A stretch of DNA of 64,000 nucleotides, taken from NCBI GenBank assembly GCA_049695995.1, contig JBAVTF010000115.1:1669-65668 (forward strand), written 5' to 3'. A program made the translations under genes and the position numbers. This DNA is from Pirellulales bacterium (GTDB lineage: Bacteria > Planctomycetota > Planctomycetia > Pirellulales > UBA1268). The notes below the pieces were generated by a model, which searched no databases, was not told the DNA's origin, and saw only the letters and a program-made list of their open reading frames with translations. This document shows, in pieces, positions 15,497 through 63,689 of the stretch; positions within the stretch are counted from its first letter, which is position 1; each line of letters opens with the position of its first letter.

Positions 15497-15960
15497 CTGA
15501 CCGACTCGATCCTCACTTGGCCGCGATCGAGCAGCGCCTGGAACGCGCGTCGCTGCAGACAGCAACGCCGGACCTACGACGACGCGTGCTCGCGTCCGTC
15601 GCTGATGTCCTGCACGAAAACGTCCACGAAAAGGAAAAGGTGCCAGCCACCAAATCTGGGTGGCTTGAGGGAGGAGGCTTGCTATCTTCTCCAGATGTGG
15701 TGGCTGGCACCTTTTTCTTGGCTGCTACGGCTGCGGTTCTCTGGCTCGTCGTGGGCTCGCCGCCACTGCCATTCGCGCCGCTGACGCTCGAAGACCGCGC
15801 CCGGATCGCGGGGGTAAATCACGAGCTGCTCGGTGTGTTCCTGGCCGACGGCGACGTCGCCGACCCCCGACCGCGATCAATGCGTGCCAGCAACGCTCCA
15901 CCGCACCCGGACACACTTCGCGTGATCGACGGACACCGACTCCTTCAGGAGACCCTTTGA
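15493..15960 (+). CDS. Putative anti-sigma factor (single-pass membrane protein)
   Basis: Its start overlaps the sigma factor stop (ATGA). It has one TM segment (VVAGTFFLAATAAVLWLVVG). This position is typical for a cognate anti-sigma factor. Confidence 0.5.
   Translation: MTDRLDPHLAAIEQRLERASLQTATPDLRRRVLASVADVLHENVHEKEKVPATKSGWLEGGGLLSSPDVVAGTFFLAATAAVLWLVVGSPPLPFAPLTLEDRARIAGVNHELLGVFLADGDVADPRPRSMRASNAPPHPDTLRVIDGHRLLQETL
15631..15719. repeat. Near-perfect 29-nt inverted repeat (31-nt spacer) inside the anti-sigma CDS
   Basis: Arm 15631-15659 pairs with arm 15691-15719. I counted 27 Watson-Crick pairs, 1 G-T pair and 1 mismatch by hand. Confidence 0.9.
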
Positions 15961-26160: not shown

Positions 26161-27303
26161 ATGGCCGACATTCCCGACCCCTTTCGCGAGCCCCGGCGGA
26201 CCGCGGGCGTTCTTGGCCTGCCCACCGACCGCGAAACGATCCCGCTGATCCTGCGGCACGAGGATGTCCGGAAGGCAGCGAAGGACTGGCAAACGTACAG
26301 TTCCGCCGCCCCGTTCCGCGTACCGATTCCGTCCGAGGAGCACCTGCGGAGCGTACGGCAGCTGCCGATCGAGACCGACCCGCCCGAACACACGGAGTAT
26401 CGAGAGCTTGTCGAGCCGTTCTTCCTGCGGGCCAAGCAGCCGGCGTTCATCGCCCGCATCGAGGCGATCGTCGATCAGCTGCTGGCGGAGGCGGTCGGTC
26501 GCGACTCGATCGAGGCGGTTGGTGCACTCGCGTTGCCACTCCAGTCACGGGCGCTCACGGTCCTGCTCGGCGTGCCCGAGAAGGAGGCCGAGAGATTCAT
26601 CGGCTGGGGCGTGCACGTGTTTCATGGTGAGCACGGCGTGCGGCAGGCGGCCGAGCTGGAGCGGTACTTGAACGAGCAGTTCGAGCTGGCGGCGGCGCAT
26701 CCAGGTGATGACTTCTACGGCCTCCTGACGAAGGCCATGTTTCGCGGACGGCCACTCACGCGGGCGGAGCAGCTGGGCTTTGCGAACCTCATGTTCGCCG
26801 GCGGCCGTGACACGGTGATTCACTCCGTGGCCTGTGCGATTGGCTACCTGGCGGAGCATCCGGACGCGCTCGACTTCCTGCGGGCCGATCCCGCTCGGAT
26901 CGTGCATGCCAGCGAGGAGTTTTTCCGCGTGTTCATGCCGCTCACGCACATCGGCCGCGTCTGCCCGGTGGATACCGAGGTGCATGGCATGACGGTCAAG
27001 GCCGGCGACCGGGCGAGTCTCTGCTGGGCGTCGGCAAACCTCGACCAGACGGTCTTCGACGCGGCCGACGAGGTACGGCTCGACCGGCGGCCGAATCCGC
27101 ACGTCTCGTTCGGATTCGGTGGGCACCTTTGTCTCGGGGCAGCCCATGCCCGCACGGTCATGCGGGCGTTGCTGGCCCGGCTGTGTGCCCGCGTCGAGCG
27201 AATCGAACTGATCTCGAAGACGGATCGCGTCGAGCACACGACCGCCTACGACCGGCCGCTCGGCTACGAGTCGCTCGTCGTCCGGCTGCACGCCGGCTCG
27301 TAG
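26161..27303 (+). CDS. Cytochrome P450
   Basis: The heme-binding loop is FGFGGHLCLGAAHAR. An EXXR-like element and the I-helix motif FAGGRDTV are present. The gene is divergent from the AraC gene. Confidence 0.9.
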   Translation: MADIPDPFREPRRTAGVLGLPTDRETIPLILRHEDVRKAAKDWQTYSSAAPFRVPIPSEEHLRSVRQLPIETDPPEHTEYRELVEPFFLRAKQPAFIARIEAIVDQLLAEAVGRDSIEAVGALALPLQSRALTVLLGVPEKEAERFIGWGVHVFHGEHGVRQAAELERYLNEQFELAAAHPGDDFYGLLTKAMFRGRPLTRAEQLGFANLMFAGGRDTVIHSVACAIGYLAEHPDALDFLRADPARIVHASEEFFRVFMPLTHIGRVCPVDTEVHGMTVKAGDRASLCWASANLDQTVFDAADEVRLDRRPNPHVSFGFGGHLCLGAAHARTVMRALLARLCARVERIELISKTDRVEHTTAYDRPLGYESLVVRLHAGS

Positions 27304-27326
27304 GCCCGTCACTCCGTGACGGGCCC
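27300..27326 (+). repeat. Palindromic boundary motif copy c (GTAGGCCCGTCACTCCGTGACGGGCCC)
   Basis: GGCCCGTCAC-TCC-GTGACGGGCC forms a perfect 10-bp inverted repeat with a 3-nt spacer. The motif contains the P450 TAG stop and matches copy d at 25 of 27 positions. Confidence 0.9.
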
Positions 27327-43137: not shown

Positions 43138-43211
43138 GGGCGATTAGCTCAGTTGGTTAGAGCACCAGCTCGACAAGCTGGGGGTCATAGGTTCGAGTCC
43201 TATATCGCCCA
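43138..43211 (+). tRNA. tRNA-Val (anticodon GAC), no encoded CCA
   Basis: I folded the cloverleaf by hand. The acceptor stem is GGGCGAT/ATCGCCC. The D arm is GCTC-AGTTGGTTA-GAGC. The anticodon arm is CCAGC-TCGACAA-GCTGG. The variable loop is GGGTC. The T arm is ATAGG-TTCGAGT-CCTAT. The discriminator is A. Position 33 reads C instead of the usual U. Confidence 0.85.
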
Positions 43212-44238: not shown

Positions 44239-44259
44239 GTGCAGACTACCAGTCTGCAC
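44239..44259. repeat. Perfect 9-bp inverted repeat with a 3-nt spacer (GTGCAGACT-ACC-AGTCTGCAC) in a divergent promoter region
   Basis: I read it directly from the sequence. It lies between the epimerase start (44180, minus strand) and the GT4 start (44345, plus strand). Confidence 0.9.
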
Positions 44260-44265
44260 CTGCCT

Positions 44266-44292
44266 GTAGGCTGGTCACTCCGTGACGGGCCC
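44266..44292 (+). repeat. Palindromic boundary motif copy d (GTAGGCTGGTCACTCCGTGACGGGCCC)
   Basis: It matches copy c (27300-27326) at 25 of 27 positions. Here the GTCAC-TCC-GTGAC core is retained but the outer stem is weakened. Confidence 0.85.
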
Positions 44293-55973: not shown

Positions 55974-56058
55974 CGCAAACCTCCGGCCTTACGCCCGCGT
56001 GGAAAACAGAGCATACCCGCCTACTCCTTCGCAGATCGACGTCCTGTGGCGAAAGTAC

Positions 56059-56191
56059 GGGGCTGCCCCTGCCCCGTCGCCGGACGCTCGCTGCGGACAT
56101 CCTGTCCTTTGCTCTCTCGGATGCCGTCTTCGCTCCGCCATCCTGGCTGCGCTCGGCGGCATACGCCGGCTCCCGGGGCATGGGCAGCCCC
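56059..56191 (+). repeat. 133-nt hairpin-closed intergenic element, copy 1
   Basis: The 5' arm GGGGCTGCCCCTGCCCCG pairs with the 3' arm CGGGGCATGGGCAGCCCC. By hand alignment it is roughly 89% identical to copy 2. Confidence 0.9.
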
Positions 56192-56773
56192 TCACGGCGT
56201 TGTGGTCGGCAGCAGGCTGCGGATTTCGGCTTCGACGTCGGCGTAGGTGAACGGCCGGCCGAGTCGGCGGGCTGCGTCGTCGTCGTCGAACCGGCGGGCC
56301 AGGGTGCCGTCGGCCTTCCAGACGTAGACGGCCGGGATGCTCACGAGGTCGAGCTTCTTGTAGAGCGAATCGGCGTCTTCCTTCGTCAGCATGTTCAAGA
56401 TTTCGCCGGCGTTAACTTTTTCGAGGAACGACCGCACGGGCGGCAGAACCTCTTCGGGCGTGCCGATGCCCTCGTAGTCGAACGAGAGCGAGAGGCAGGC
56501 GACCCGGTCACGATATTTCTCCGCCAGGGCGACGAGGCCGGGGAATTCCTTCACGCAAGGGGGGCACGACGTGCTCCAGCAGTCGAGCACGACGATCCGC
56601 CCGCGCCGGGCCTCGACGGCCGCCATCAGGCCGGCGTGATCGACGAGTGCGACGTCGATGGCCTGTGCGGCGGCCGGCGGGGCTGGTGGTGGTGGCGAGC
56701 AGCCCGCGATCAGGCAGAATGCGATGCCAGCCGTGACGATCAGATGCGAGACGATGCCGCGATTCGAGCACAT
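56192..56773 (-). CDS. TlpA-like thiol:disulfide oxidoreductase lipoprotein (thioredoxin fold, CPPC)
   Basis: The lipobox is CLIAGCS. The active site is LDCWSTSCPPCVKEFPGL. ATG 56773 overlaps the divergent SpoU start by 20 nt. Confidence 0.7.
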   Translation of the reverse strand: MCSNRGIVSHLIVTAGIAFCLIAGCSPPPPAPPAAAQAIDVALVDHAGLMAAVEARRGRIVVLDCWSTSCPPCVKEFPGLVALAEKYRDRVACLSLSFDYEGIGTPEEVLPPVRSFLEKVNAGEILNMLTKEDADSLYKKLDLVSIPAVYVWKADGTLARRFDDDDAARRLGRPFTYADVEAEIRSLLPTTTP

Positions 56774-57272
56774 CAGGCACAAGCCTCCCGAGAGTCTGCC
56801 GACGCCGCGCGAGCTCATCGTCGCCTGTGCGGCGATGCGCAGCCACGTCAACCTGTCGCACATCGTACGGACCTGCGGCTGTTTCGGCATCCGCCGGGTG
56901 ATCGCCTGCGGCGCAGCCCGGCTGCACGAGCGGATCGCCCGCGATGGTGCCGAGTCGGTGGCGCTCGACGTGCATCGTAGCCTGCCGCCGGTGCTCGACC
57001 GGCTCAAGGCCGAGGGTTACCAGCTCGTGGGCCTCGAGCAGACGACCAACTCGGAGCGGCTGTTCTCGTTCTCGTTCGCGGCACGCACGGTGCTCGTGAT
57101 CGGCAACGAGCGGACGGGACTGGAGCCCGATGAACTCGCACGGCTCGACCGCGTGGCCGAGATTCCGATGGCCGGCATGCCCCACAGCCTCAACGCGGCC
57201 ACGTCCACGGCGATCGCGGTCTACGAATACTGCCGCCAGCATCCGGCGGCAGCCGCAGGGCACGCGCCATGA
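56754..57272 (+). CDS. SpoU/TrmH-family RNA 2'-O-methyltransferase
   Basis: The SPOUT motifs are NLSHIVRTCGCFG, VLVIGNERTGL and IPMAGMPHSLNAATSTAIAVYE. Confidence 0.75.
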   Translation: MPRFEHIRHKPPESLPTPRELIVACAAMRSHVNLSHIVRTCGCFGIRRVIACGAARLHERIARDGAESVALDVHRSLPPVLDRLKAEGYQLVGLEQTTNSERLFSFSFAARTVLVIGNERTGLEPDELARLDRVAEIPMAGMPHSLNAATSTAIAVYEYCRQHPAAAAGHAP

Positions 57273-60309: not shown

Positions 60310-60428
60310 GTCGCCCGTCCCGTCTCACCGTAGTCCGCACACTCGCGCCGTAGTCCGCATGCGGCCCACGGGCAGAACACCGCAGGCCCGTCTATTCCTT
60401 CGCGGGTCGACCTCCTGCGTGGGGGTCC

Positions 60429-60561
60429 GGGGCTGCCCACGCCCCGTCGCCGGACGCTCGCTACGAACATCCTGTTCTTCGCTCGCTCGGATGCCGCCGT
60501 CGCTTCGGCATCCTGCCTGCGCTTGGCGGCATACGCCGGCTCCTGGGGCATGGGCAGCCCC
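60429..60561 (+). repeat. 133-nt hairpin-closed intergenic element, copy 2
   Basis: The ends are GGGGCTGCCCACGCCCCG...TGGGGCATGGGCAGCCCC. The central hairpin GGATGCCG-N9-CGGCATCC is perfect in this copy. Confidence 0.9.
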
Positions 60562-60681
60562 GCACCTCCTGTACTCTGAGCCCCCAAGCACCGGCGATCA
60601 CTACAAAGACGCGCGATGGATTCCGTCGCCACCCGGTAGGCGTCATACTCGGGGGCTCGCCGTAGGCCCTCCGACGCACAC

Positions 60682-61704
60682 ATGACCCGCACCACGCTCC
60701 CGCTGTCCGCCGCCACGCTGCCGCTGTATGCGGGCGTCGATCTCGGTGGCACGAATATCAAGGCGGCGCTCGTCGATGACGCGGGGCGGATCGTCGCCTT
60801 TCACACCGAGCCGACGCATGCCACCCGCGGACCGGAGGATGCTGCCGCCCGCATGGGCCGAGCGGTGCACGCGCTCGCCGCCCAGGCCGGCATCGCCACG
60901 GCCGACGTGGCGGCCGTCGGGCTCGGCTCGCCCGGACCGCTCGACATTCCGGCGGGCACGATCGTGCGGGCCGGCAACCTGCCTGGCTGGGACGACTTTC
61001 CGATCCGGGACCGCGTGGCTGCCCACTGCGGCCGGCCGGTGACGTTCGCCAACGACGCAAATGCGGCGGCGTATGGCGAGTTCTGGGTCGGCTCCGGTCG
61101 CGAGGAGACGAGCCTCGTCATGCTCACGCTGGGCACGGGCGTCGGCGGGGGAATCATCATCGGCGACTTGAACGTGGAGGGCGCCCACAGCCACGGGTCG
61201 GAGTGCGGTCACATGATCGTCGATCCGTCGCCCGAGGCCCGCGTGTGCCCCTGCGGCCAGCCGGGGCACCTGGAGGCCTACGCCAGTGCCACGGCGGTCG
61301 TGCGGCGGGCCGACGAGGCGATCCGGGCCGATGGCTGCGGGTCGCTGGCTCGGGCAGTGGCCGCGGGCGAACCGCTCACCCCGATTCTCGTAGGCCGAGA
61401 ATGTGCCGCGGGCGATCCGGTGGCGACGGCGATCGTGGCCGAGACGGCCCGCTGGCTCGGCATCGGCATCGTCACGCTCATGCATACGATCGACCCCGAA
61501 GCCGTGATCATCGGCGGCGCCATGACGTTCGGGGGTGAGGCCGATCCGGTGGGCCGGCTGTTCATCGAGGCCGTTCGCTCCGAGGTCCGCTTCCGCACGT
61601 TTCCGCTTCTGGCCGCCCGCACGGTGATCCGCTACGCCAGCCTCGGGGGTGACGCGGGGGCCATCGGCGCCGCCGGCCTCGCGCGGCTCTCCCATCGCGG
61701 GTAA
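60682..61704 (+). CDS. glk: ROK-family glucokinase
   Basis: The ATP-binding motif is GVDLGGTNIK, and the ROK zinc motif is GHM......CPCGQPGHLE. There is no N-terminal HTH. Confidence 0.8.
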   Translation: MTRTTLPLSAATLPLYAGVDLGGTNIKAALVDDAGRIVAFHTEPTHATRGPEDAAARMGRAVHALAAQAGIATADVAAVGLGSPGPLDIPAGTIVRAGNLPGWDDFPIRDRVAAHCGRPVTFANDANAAAYGEFWVGSGREETSLVMLTLGTGVGGGIIIGDLNVEGAHSHGSECGHMIVDPSPEARVCPCGQPGHLEAYASATAVVRRADEAIRADGCGSLARAVAAGEPLTPILVGRECAAGDPVATAIVAETARWLGIGIVTLMHTIDPEAVIIGGAMTFGGEADPVGRLFIEAVRSEVRFRTFPLLAARTVIRYASLGGDAGAIGAAGLARLSHRG

Positions 61705-61713
61705 GATTCGTTC

Positions 61714-63531
61714 ATGCCTATCGACTGCAAACACATCCGTAATTTCTCGATCATCGCCCACATCGACCACGGCAAGAGCACGCTCGCCGACCGGCTCTTG
61801 GAGCGCACCGGCACGGTGGACAAGCGGCAGCTCAAGGACCAGATGCTCGACGACATGGAGCTCGAGCGGCAGCGGGGCATCACGATCAAGGCCCGGGCCG
61901 TGCGGATGGAATGCCGCCACCAGGGCGAGCTCTACGAGCTGAACCTGATCGATACGCCCGGCCACGTCGATTTCCACTACGAAGTCTCGCGCAGCCTCGC
62001 CTGCTGCGAAGGCGCCGTCCTGCTGGTCGATGCCTTCCAGGGGGTCGAGGCCCAGACGGTTGCCAACGCCTACGCGGCGATCAACCAAAACCTCGCCATC
62101 GTGCCGGTGATCAACAAGGTCGACCTCGTGCATGCTCGCGTGGACGAGGTGCTTCAAGAGATGGAGCAGAGCCTCGCCATCGATCCTACGGAGGTGATCA
62201 GGGCCAGCGCCAAGACGGGCATCGGCATCGACGAGTTGCTGGCCGCGATCGTGGAGCGGATTCCGCCTCCGCAGGGCGATCCGCAGGCCACCTTGCGGGC
62301 GATGATCTTCGACAGCCACTACGACGCCTACCGCGGCGCCATCACCTACGTGCGGCTCCTCGACGGCACGATCAAGAAGGGGCAGAAGATCCGCTTCCTA
62401 CGGACGGGCGTGACCCACGACGTGCTCGAGCTGGGCCAGTTCGTGCCGCAGCGGCGGGCCTGCGACGAGCTCATGGCCGGCCAGGTGGGCTACCTCGTCT
62501 GCAACATCAAGGACGTCAAGCAGGTCCACATCGGCGACACGGTGACGATCCCGGGCGACCATGCCGCACCGGCGCTGGCGGGCTACAAGCCGCCGCAGCG
62601 GATGGTCTACTGCGGCCTCTATCCGAGCGAAGGGGAGAACTTCGAGGAGCTCCGCGACTCGCTGGAAAAGCTGGCGATCAACGACCCGTCGTTCGAATAC
62701 CAGCCGGAGAGCTCGGAGGCCCTCGGCTTCGGCTTCCGCTGCGGCTTCCTCGGACTGCTCCACATGGAGATCATCCAGCAGCGGCTCGAGCAGGAGGCCG
62801 ATCTCGATCTCGTGCAGACCGCGCCCAACGTCACGTATCAGATCCTCAAGACCGACGGCGAAACGATCGAGATCACCAACCCGCAGGACGTGCCCGACAC
62901 CGGCCAGATCGAGGAGTTTCGCCAGCCGATCGTGCGGACGAATTTCCTCACGCCGGTCGAGCACATCGGGCCGATCATGCAGCTCTGCACCGATCGCCGC
63001 GGTACCTATCTGAAGACGGAATACCTCTCGCCCACCCGGGCGATGCTCACCTTCGACCTGCCTCTGGCCGAGGTGATCTACGACATGCATGACAAGCTCA
63101 AGAGCGTGACCCGTGGCTACGGCACGATGGACTACGAGCTGATCGGGTATTTCCCTGCTGACCTCGTTCGGCTCGACATCCTCGTCGGCGGCAAGAAGGT
63201 CGACGCCCTGTCCATCATCTGCGACCGCCGGGATGCCGACCGCCGCGGCCGCGCGATCGTGAAGAAGCTCCGTGGCGAGATCGACCGCCACATGTTCGAG
63301 ATCGCCCTCCAGGCCGCGATCGGCACGAAGGTCATCGCCCGCGAGACGATCTCCGCGATGCGGAAGAACGTGACGGCCAAGTGTTATGGCGGTGACATCT
63401 CCCGGAAGAAGAAGCTGTGGGCGAAGCAGAAGGAGGGCAAGAAGCGGATGAAGAGCATCGGCTCGGTGGACATTCCGCAGAAGGCCTTCATGGCGGTGCT
63501 CGATACCGGCACCGAGCGGCAGCAGGGGTGA
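61714..63531 (+). CDS. lepA: Translation elongation factor 4 (LepA)
   Basis: The motifs are IRNFSIIAHIDHGKSTLADRLL, DTPGHVDF and NKVD. The LepA-specific C-terminal region is GGDISRKKKLWAKQKEGKKRMK. Confidence 0.97.
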   Translation: MPIDCKHIRNFSIIAHIDHGKSTLADRLLERTGTVDKRQLKDQMLDDMELERQRGITIKARAVRMECRHQGELYELNLIDTPGHVDFHYEVSRSLACCEGAVLLVDAFQGVEAQTVANAYAAINQNLAIVPVINKVDLVHARVDEVLQEMEQSLAIDPTEVIRASAKTGIGIDELLAAIVERIPPPQGDPQATLRAMIFDSHYDAYRGAITYVRLLDGTIKKGQKIRFLRTGVTHDVLELGQFVPQRRACDELMAGQVGYLVCNIKDVKQVHIGDTVTIPGDHAAPALAGYKPPQRMVYCGLYPSEGENFEELRDSLEKLAINDPSFEYQPESSEALGFGFRCGFLGLLHMEIIQQRLEQEADLDLVQTAPNVTYQILKTDGETIEITNPQDVPDTGQIEEFRQPIVRTNFLTPVEHIGPIMQLCTDRRGTYLKTEYLSPTRAMLTFDLPLAEVIYDMHDKLKSVTRGYGTMDYELIGYFPADLVRLDILVGGKKVDALSIICDRRDADRRGRAIVKKLRGEIDRHMFEIALQAAIGTKVIARETISAMRKNVTAKCYGGDISRKKKLWAKQKEGKKRMKSIGSVDIPQKAFMAVLDTGTERQQG

Positions 63532-63556
63532 GGGTTCGATGCCTCTGGGTTGGGTC

Positions 63557-63689
63557 GGGGTTGCCCCTGCCCCGAGAGCCGGACGCTCGCTACGAACATC
63601 CTGTTCTTCGCTCGCTCGGATCCCGCCTGCGCTTCGGCATCCTGCCTGCGCTTGGCGGGATACGCCGGCGACAGGGTACGGGCAACCCC
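63557..63689 (+). repeat. 133-nt hairpin-closed intergenic element, copy 3
   Basis: The ends are GGGGTTGCCCCTGCCCCG...AGGGTACGGGCAACCCC. The C-to-T change in the 5' arm is matched by a G-to-A change in the 3' arm. Confidence 0.9.

Follow-up and report, generated by a model that had tools for sequence, protein, structure and literature searches.

Three copies of a 133-nt structured element lie in a 64,000-nt stretch of DNA from a Pirellulales bacterium (assembly GCA_049695995.1, contig JBAVTF010000115.1, positions 1,669 to 65,668 of the forward strand; hereafter the window), and they belong to a large and apparently undescribed family of repeats. We tentatively favour, with slightly less than even confidence, the reading that the element is a non-autonomous, mobile, structured intergenic repeat, similar to REPINs and miniature inverted-repeat transposable elements (MITEs), which has multiplied in Pirellulales and spreads via a single-stranded intermediate. 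This reading of a REPIN/MITE-like element with a single-stranded intermediate fits its mobility, its location at the 3' ends of genes, its doublets, its association with repetitive extragenic palindromes (REPs), the absence of target-site duplication and a one-strand fold that is independent of transcription.

The three copies are in the same orientation, at 56059-56191, 60429-60561 and 63557-63689, as a sequence-only reading of the window had proposed and as both alignment and a covariance model bear out. Their cores are identical at 89.5% (copies 1 and 2), 82.1% (copies 1 and 3) and 87.3% (copies 2 and 3) of positions. The covariance model, R1, was built from an alignment, A2, of 68 distinct copies of the family; against the window it gives these three matches only, all on the minus strand and with 133-153 bits, and the other repeats of the window are 30-40 nt matches at chance level, none of them comparable with the 133-nt family. 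Each copy was also folded and compared with its dinucleotide shuffles, and z lies between -5.5 and -8.6 on either strand.

RNAalifold applied to the 68 copies of A2 gives a fold of 46 pairs in seven helices with one branch point, composed of an 18-pair closing helix, a GCCGG/CCGGC helix, a helix 3 tipped by a small hairpin, and a second small hairpin with GCGAGC/GCGAGC flanks. The closing helix, 18-22 bp long with its extensions, and the GCCGG/CCGGC helix lead into two arms, each with a short GGA-loop hairpin on top of purine-rich internal loops of G·A. Covariation, the check on which the proposal of a structured element depended, is strong. In fact, 97.8% of the paired cells are observed as pairs, against 89.3% in shuffled alignments and 34-46% when the partners are slid by 1-3 columns, and 26 of the 46 pairs change on both sides, a number that none of 500 shuffles reaches. 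The terminal helix of 17-18 bp noticed in the sequence-only reading is real: 15 of its 18 pairs change on both sides among the 68 copies, and it is 3-5 bp longer in about 40% of copies. The GCCGG/CCGGC pair is equally real and forms an invariant helix. In helix 5 the pair 49-58 is GC in 34 copies and CG in 33; in helix 7 the pair 91-101 is GC in 38, AU in 24 and CG in 5; helix 3 switches between CG, UA and AU and between CG, AU and GC. The centre of the fold had to be redrawn, since the hairpin GGATGCCG-N9-CGGCATCC placed there earlier has two pairs broken in 29-40 of the 68 copies and does no better than shuffles; the supported arrangement is an outer helix, ATGCCGYC/GGCGGCAT, around a small hairpin, GCC-ATCCT-GGC. 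An alternative CATCC:GGATG pairing is possible but never varies, and hence covariation is silent on it. Moreover, the earlier fold had been drawn on the less favourable strand, the better-folding and wobble-tolerant strand being the minus strand of the window.

The features of the three copies, with the evidence on which each is drawn, are the following.

56059..56191, minus strand: core of copy 1 (133.5 bits with R1, model positions 1-133; fold z -5.6)
56059..56076, minus strand: arm of the closing helix, partner of 56174-56191 (covariation of helix 1)
56174..56191, minus strand: second arm of the closing helix (covariation of helix 1)
56079..56083, minus strand: GCCGG arm of the invariant inner helix, with its CCGGC partner at 56166-56170 (helix 2, 99.6% paired, zero variation)
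56095..56107, minus strand: GGA-loop hairpin, GGACA-GGA-UGUCC on the minus strand, between GCGAGC/GCGAGC with tandem G·A (helix 7)
56121..56162, minus strand: helix 3, with arms 56121-56128 and 56155-56162, around the second GGA hairpin (6 of 9 pairs change on both sides)
56137-56147, minus strand: second GGA-loop hairpin, GCCA-GGA-UGGC on the minus strand (helix 5, pair 49-58)
56020..56058, minus strand: conserved linker (GUACUUUCGCCACAGGACGUCGAUCUGCGAAGGAGUAGG), on the 3' side in the minus-strand reading, a homologue of the family's linker with AGGAGG and GGAGGA
56192..56212, minus strand: conserved 5' flank, family consensus ..TGCCAACCAAnACGCCGTGA (flank comparison, orthologue at locus L058, Pfam)
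60429..60561, minus strand: core of copy 2, antisense to the genes of cytochrome c peroxidase and of a ROK kinase (152.7 bits)
60328..60428, minus strand: mosaic joined to copy 2, with the linker at 60390-60428, a G·U-rich hairpin at 60363-60389 and two GTAG-footed REP-like units at 60328-60364
63557..63689, minus strand: core of copy 3, downstream of lepA and antisense to it (134.9 bits)
63532..63556, minus strand: linker remnant beside copy 3, directly after the lepA stop codon (sequence alignment)

Conservation is unevenly distributed over this plan. The junction strings GAGCCGGCGU, AGCG, CGAGCGAGCGAAG and AGCGAGCGUCC are more conserved than the closing helix, and the module of the GGA-loop hairpin at 56095-56107 is the most conserved part, which is also common to the copies found in Eremiobacterota, part of this conservation of junctions and module being imposed by the search pattern. 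The divergent copies and those of Eremiobacterota keep the same plan with different stems, and nearly all of them have GGA in both loops. Tandem G·A oppositions recur: the GCGAGC/GCGAGC segments have them, and so does the foot (GUGA...GAAC) of the main subfamily. At three loci (L006 2274-2458, L072 6831-7007 and L028 3502-3657) a small palindrome, CACCGATCCGC-NTTA-GCGGATTGGTCG, is nested exactly at the position of a GGA-loop hairpin, which suggests that the GGA-loop hairpins are themselves targets of insertion.

The fold is strongly asymmetric between the strands. Counted on the strand that corresponds to the minus strand of the window, the helices contain 79 G·U against 26 A·C oppositions, a ratio of about 5:1 when one doubtful pair is left out. 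No genomic context lacks the G·U excess, and the copies that are antisense to both neighbours have it too (24 against 5); the fold therefore belongs to one strand, and the constraint on it is intrinsic to the element and does not come from local transcription. Energy calculations favour the minus-strand version: with RNA parameters it is more stable than the plus-strand version in 107 of 108 copies (mean 9.5 kcal/mol), with DNA parameters in 105 of them. Small GTAG REP hairpins in these genomes lack an asymmetry of this kind (12 against 9). The orientation of the copies relative to the local GC skew (66:44) and that of consecutive copies (8 the same, 6 opposite) give signals too weak to use.

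The extent of the family was established by a scan with the exact pattern GGACGCTCGCTNNNNACATCCTG in one genome per species, for which we estimate about 4 chance matches. It gave at least 107 loci, nearly all in metagenome-assembled genomes (MAGs) of Pirellulales/Planctomycetia, and the further copies on which the sequence-only reading had staked its proposal thus make up a large family. The host MAGs come from soils, treatment plants and lakes, several of them from one lake sampled from 2002 to 2018, and the two MAGs JAPOJV bin72 and JBJTIE have at least 19-23 loci each among the matches listed. The R1 search of the fetched loci brought the family to about 120 full copies, many of which have no match to the seed pattern. 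Many copies are found at contig ends, as one expects of a repeat that breaks assemblies.

Outside the Planctomycetota, two Eremiobacterota MAGs hold three genuine relatives, structurally equivalent and on contigs of 0.29-1.5 Mb. These relatives (L015 540-690, L066 7336-7486 and L044 4380-4705) are 150 nt long and have the same architecture; they share a near-identical 40-nt module, CGAGCGAGCG-NAG-NACAGGAUGUN-CGGAGCGAGCGUCC, and form an inverted doublet at one locus. They reflect either cross-phylum transfer or deep conservation. A match in an alphaproteobacterium (L014) was rejected as due to chance, being inside a coding region and having no match to the covariance model, and the one pattern match in viral contigs was not confirmed by the model. 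The Pirellulales element was also seen in MAGs labelled 'Chitinophagaceae' or 'Candidatus Kuenenia stuttgartiensis' (L005, L042, L043, L091 and L098 in CAZPEM; L007, L022, L028, L031, L069, L093 and L099 in CAMDDA, CAMBSN and CAMDDJ); since the copies there have 65-73% G+C, these taxonomic labels are probably wrong.

The core is only one part of a larger mosaic. In the main subfamily the order on the minus strand is a conserved 5' flank of about 20 nt, the core, a linker (GAACNCNCRCCACAGGAGGUCGACCCGCGGAGGAAUAGAC), a G·U-rich hairpin and one or two hairpins followed by CUAC, which on the other strand are GTAG-footed REPs. The weaker homology that had been seen for about 40 nt to the left of the copies in the window is therefore genuine and corresponds to this linker of the family. 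The cores have an about 8-fold excess of REP-like hairpins within 220 nt, and the hairpins downstream of them have a fixed orientation (18:1). A second subfamily, with the termini CGGGYGACCC, occurs as inverted doublets. Among the close pairs, 10 of 11 have their 5' ends facing at a distance of 25-90 nt, and the inverted doublets are palindromes of 350-450 bp with outer repeats TCAACTCGCCCAANCCGGCTT and REPs at the centre. The 5' feet of 108 copies are mostly GTGA (37), GCTT (17), GTTC (12) and GCGA (11), without a conserved GTAG or CGTC tag; they are specific to the subfamily, and in the main subfamily both flanks are conserved. Among the ordinary REPs of these genomes the GGA/TCC triloop is the commonest (51 of 119). 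In the window itself a GTAG-footed REP hairpin, GTAGGCCCGTCAC-TCC-GTGACGGGCC, lies at 27293-27326 and again, with 85% identity, at 44259-44292; both are of the same family of small REPs that is found beside the 133-nt element in relatives, and so the genome of the window has ordinary REPs away from the 133-nt elements too.

The element has a preference for the ends of genes. The intergenic regions that contain it are convergent in 29 cases, divergent in 3 and tandem in 31, against 52, 73 and 223, respectively, for the regions without it (p=1.8e-8). Copies adjoin stop codons in either orientation, with a bias to the 3' ends of genes and avoidance of divergent regions, and 23 of the 71 classifiable copies, among them copies 2 and 3 of the window, are antisense to both neighbours. 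Copy 1 lies between the stop codon of a thioredoxin-like gene and the start of lepB and on the minus strand is sense to both; these two gene names, already given in the sequence-only reading, agree with Pfam, while the orientations given there are reversed on the better-folding strand (copy 1 sense, copies 2 and 3 antisense). That the element is not a gene-specific leader was borne out. The conserved 5' flank of copy 1 (..CCGACCACAACGCCGTGA) forms the end of the thioredoxin-like gene (56192-57007), namely its last five codons and its TGA; the orthologue at L058 has a different end. The neighbouring genes are otherwise ordinary according to Pfam: lepB, the thioredoxin-like gene, RNase HII, a histidine phosphatase, cytochrome c peroxidase, a ROK kinase and lepA. 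Downstream of copy 1, the minus strand of 55974-56019 reads GAAGGAG and then a 14-codon open reading frame (ORF; ATGCTCTGT...CGATGA), whose stop overlaps the lepB start (ATGA); it has no conservation in the family and is probably fortuitous.

None of the scans for known signals identified the element. No Rfam family matches at the elements, either at gathering thresholds in the whole window or at E<=10 in 55.9-64 kb, in accordance with the earlier impression that it belongs to no known RNA family. The promoter scan found no promoter at the elements, and the sole call of the terminator scan there was, on the plus strand, a small hairpin inside copy 1, which is within chance expectation. A remnant of a duplicated coding segment, which the sequence-only reading had considered, was rejected, variation having no 3-base periodicity (0.088/0.115/0.115). 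A 566-aa ORF that runs through a copy at L072 was likewise judged spurious, as the codon-position GC shifts frame across the element.

Comparison of orthologous sites provides the evidence of mobility. Locus L058 is syntenic to 54.2-62.5 kb of the window at 69-88% nucleotide identity. It is without copy 1 and also lacks the entire 372-nt spacer mosaic of copy 2, the two genes on either side of that site overlapping there in TGATG. In place of the 9 nt that lie between the ROK gene and lepA in the window, it has a copy with an internal deletion. The right part of the copy 2 spacer, 60562-60681, is likewise missing from L058, so that the inserted mosaic exceeds the core and its left arm; this part contains an 8-nt inverted pair, GAGCCCCC at 60578-60585 and GGGGGCTC at 60651-60658, and GTAG motifs at 60632-60644 and 60659-60669. 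In L095, from a genome that is 95% identical over 60611-63557, a different member of the family and an additional block of REP, hairpin and linker occupy the site of copy 3, and synteny with the window stops at both elements, a break for which misassembly at the repeats is possible. In most pairs of orthologous sites the flanks are 88-97% identical over the aligned stretches. The divergence of the cores reaches about 13% of positions in the closer pairs and exceeds this in the most divergent. It consists in the exchange of one whole helix variant for another, and in one copy two variants are combined as a chimera; both facts point to replacement or gene conversion of the copies among themselves.

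A search for the means of this mobility in the neighbourhood of the copies gave negative results. Direct repeats of 3-8 nt at the core boundaries are no commoner than in shuffles, with 0-2 among 108 copies. A scan for HUH/Y1 motifs over about 770 kb around the copies found none, nor a TnpA or a REP-associated tyrosine transposase (RAYT) gene; all-against-all clustering of the proteins near copies gave no recurrent family; between inverted copies lie the housekeeping genes hisG, miaA and that of a hydantoinase, with no transposase among them; and in the loci examined there is no related autonomous insertion sequence (IS) with the same termini.

Related elements have been described in the same phylum. 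GTAG REPs and RAYTs are documented in Planctomycetes, as are the inverted dimers in which REP units are commonly found, together with RAYT-like TIRYT genes flanked by longer, G-rich inverted repeats (PMC3733652). GTAG REPs with TCC loops from Planctomycetes are listed in Table S1 of PMC6006769, which also describes a 'class 3' Y1 family that is found for the most part in Planctomycetes and Acidobacteria and has atypical, high-copy secondary structures on the flanks of its genes. No published element of these two papers matches the 133-nt fold, and the CnGA structures associated with class 3 Y1 genes (PMC6006769 Table S1) have only a vague resemblance to it (GAGAGCCGGCG against CAGAGCCGCGACC), which we do not use as homology.

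The closest likeness is to REPs, REPINs and bacterial interspersed mosaic elements (BIMEs). Like these, the element is extragenic, high-copy and palindromic, lies at gene 3' ends and in convergent spacers, occurs as singlets and fixed inverted doublets with stems that covary between subfamilies, makes no target-site duplication, and is in addition joined in a mosaic to true GTAG-footed REP hairpins. It differs in being 133 nt long and branched, with four covarying helices, where a REP is a single hairpin of 20-40 nt; its foot carries neither the GTAG nor the CGTC tag, its interior is polar, with two GGA hairpins in direct repeat rather than a simple palindrome, the strand that it favours is the complement of the one with GTAG in neighbouring REPs, and no RAYT gene flanked by it was found in the 770 kb scanned. 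As to MITEs, the inverted termini for which the sequence-only reading had looked are present, but target-site duplications of at least 3 nt are absent. Since it fails the REP features of size and GTAG tag and the MITE feature of duplication, the element is filed as an interspersed structured bacterial repeat and as a member of neither class. Of the original proposal of a structured RNA or a MITE/REP-like family, what stands is a structured repeat family to which the REP-like side fits better; the element was not established as an RNA gene.

Other systems share some of its features. The terminal inverted repeats (TIRs) of TIRtrons, which are built on TIRYT genes of subclass 2.1 (PMC3733652, PMC6006769), are also longer inverted repeats that start with a run of G, moderately abundant, often in dimers or clusters, and found in phyla outside Proteobacteria; however, their consensus GGGG[AT][CG]A[CG] is not matched by the main termini GGGGCTGC / GGGGTTGC, only the CGGGTGAC subfamily approximates it, and no TIRYT gene lies between arms of the element in the loci examined. 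With the ends of IS200/IS605 and with their gene-less derivatives, the palindrome-associated transposable elements (PATEs), it has in common a strand-specific folded signal in single-stranded DNA, two similar imperfect hairpins in direct orientation, no requirement for inverted repeats, no target duplication and subfamily-specific flanking tetranucleotides. Unlike them, its ends are joined by a long helix and both its flanks are conserved (in PATEs only the 5' target is), no TnpA or TnpB was found nearby in the loci examined, and the orientation bias relative to GC skew is weak. The Correia elements of Neisseria and the enterobacterial repetitive intergenic consensus (ERIC, or intergenic repeat unit, IRU) have conserved termini and target-site duplications (TA for Correia). 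The likeness to them is in the intergenic position and 100-160 nt length, the inverted termini, the long hairpin formed upon co-transcription, the insertion polymorphism between strains and the effect on the ends of neighbouring genes; the differences are that our element has no duplication, variable termini, a conserved core and a strong strand asymmetry. Integron attC sites have R''/R' core sites of the form RYYYAAC ... GTTRRRY and stand in arrays of promoterless cassettes; an attC identity was rejected, the element having GGGG...CCCC ends with GTGA/GAAC flanks and housekeeping neighbours (lepB, lepA, rnhB-like, ROK and cytochrome c peroxidase genes).

In the mechanism that we consider, the strand-specific fold would be maintained by propagation through a single-stranded nucleic-acid intermediate. 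A structure-specific enzyme encoded elsewhere in the genome, most plausibly of the HUH/Y1 type (RAYT- or IS200/IS605-like), would recognise this intermediate. Once inserted, the stable hairpin may be co-transcribed with the 3' end of the neighbouring genes or with an intercistronic region and may act, as other REP-type elements do, as a barrier to 3' exonucleases or to read-through. Several observations weigh against this reading. No transposase lies beside or between copies in the loci examined, which leaves the mobilising enzyme a purely postulated one. The termini vary more than the interior junctions and loops do, which is how a functional RNA behaves and not the ends of a classical transposon, even if the search pattern imposed part of this conservation. 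The GTAG foot of the attached REPs is opposite to the best-folding strand of the core, and one single-strand RAYT cannot explain both. The orientation bias with GC skew is weak, whereas a strong one is expected of transposons that use lagging-strand single-stranded DNA, and some of the rearrangements seen at elements in MAGs could be artefacts of repeat assembly.

The main rival is a functional RNA module, in which the minus-strand GGA hairpins would bind a CsrA (RsmA) dimer and the copies in 3' untranslated or intercistronic regions would titrate CsrA or recruit its control; we consider this rather unlikely. Each core has two GGA-loop hairpins about 40 nt apart, to which composite copies add the linker motifs AGGAGG/GGAGGA and the GGA-loop REP hairpins. 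CAGGAUG is the consensus of the CsrB repeats, and this loop occurs twice per copy. The published rule for a CsrA site, 'A(N)GGA in a hairpin', is satisfied by the loops of the element (PMC10729762). Whereas the stems covary, the loops retain GGA even in the divergent copies and in those of Eremiobacterota; as in functional RNAs, the interior junctions vary less than the closing helix. Tandem G·A motifs are found repeatedly, and only the minus strand tolerates G·U. Conservation of CsrA in Planctomycetes has been reported (PMC10729762, PMC4682653), and a homologue (PF02599, 63 bits) is encoded at a locus of one host MAG. Copy 1, moreover, is sense to its operon, and there the controlled mRNA would be the trx-lepB transcript. 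Compared with CsrB, RsmY and RsmZ, the element shares the repeated CAGGAUG/GGA in the loops of short hairpins, two per core and with a spacing compatible with bridging by a CsrA dimer, and the presence of CsrA in at least one host genome. However, those are single regulated genes with promoter and terminator, while the element is a dispersed mobile repeat in either orientation; it has no Rfam Csr/Rsm match even at E<=10, no promoter was found, and the 23 antisense copies speak against the RNA role. The G·U excess is the same in such antisense copies, and local transcription is therefore not what maintains it. In ordinary REPs of these genomes, too, the commonest triloop is GGA/TCC, which also occurs in REPs of other phyla (PMC6006769 Table S1), hence the loop may be a DNA-level or enzyme-related feature. 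A combination of the two ideas, in which a mobile RNA module would carry ready-made CsrA sites and form a genome-wide, transposon-borne network that titrates or recruits CsrA in Planctomycetota, with a variant form in Eremiobacterota, seems improbable. At L064 3732-4996 (JBIIOK010000015.1) a csrA homologue (80 aa, PF02599) stands between two MpsC-family genes; CsrA and one of the MpsC proteins carry (Asn-Gly)n repeats, and a copy of the element is located about 750 nt downstream of csrA on the same strand, just upstream of a gene for a response regulator/PP2C phosphatase.

The position of the copies could alternatively be explained by a domesticated, bidirectional 3'-end element (a terminator or insulator, or a hairpin that stabilises mRNA), selected by the host and mobile only incidentally. 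Enrichment in convergent spacers and after stop codons, depletion in divergent regions and a hairpin that is very stable in either orientation agree with it, and such a role is known for REPs (PMC3733652). It is nevertheless unlikely, since both sides lack a U tract and the terminator scan made no call at the closing helix, a plain barrier hairpin would leave the junctions, the GGA loops and the strand asymmetry unexplained, and orthologous sites in relatives do without the element. A conventional MITE moved by a DDE transposase, with the closing helix as terminal inverted repeats and the interior as a passenger, would account for the inverted termini, the small size, the absence of coding sequence, the many copies and the presence/absence polymorphism. 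We give it little credence: the termini are the most variable part and covary, while the interior is the most conserved and has three further covarying helices, a strong strand asymmetry is unexpected for double-strand cut-and-paste, and neither a target-site duplication of at least 3 nt (0-2 of 108 copies, as in shuffles) nor a related IS was found in the loci examined. Finally, the three-way-junction fold with its invariant junction nucleotides and the conservation of the module across phyla could suggest an independent multi-copy small RNA gene, or a new class of self-processing RNA, with its own promoter; this is very improbable, because no conserved promoter or terminator and no Rfam match were found, the flanks vary between subfamilies, and the element behaves as mobile, recombining DNA.

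Two further features of the window are unconnected with these questions. The sole Rfam match in the window is a tRNA gene at 43138-43211 (RF00005, 71 bits). At 15631-15719 there is a 29-nt inverted repeat, 93% complementary and with a 31-nt spacer, which is unusually A+T-rich for this genome (AAGGAAAAGGTGCCAGCCACCAAATCTGG / CCAGATGTGGTGGCTGGCACCTTTTTCTT) and unrelated to the 133-nt element; it could be a bidirectional terminator or another element.

REP, REPIN, BIME, Correia and ERIC elements are known mainly from Proteobacteria and are simple hairpins. Pirellulales carry a far more elaborate interspersed repeat, with a branched fold of 46 bp that is supported by covariation and has conserved junctions. 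The family is dispersed at gene ends, where it rewrites gene termini and operon spacers, and it coincides with breaks of synteny; as it also breaks metagenome assemblies and yields false ORFs, annotators are advised to mask it. If the folded single strand is moved by an HUH-type enzyme, the range of substrates of such enzymes would be wider, and the element would offer a handle on the poorly understood Y1 families of Planctomycetes. If, on the other hand, it acts as an RNA through its GGA loops, mobile DNA would be linked to CsrA control. To our knowledge, the FliW protein is the sole known antagonist of CsrA outside Proteobacteria, and a CsrA network built on these repeats would provide the first RNA antagonist or partner of CsrA outside that phylum.

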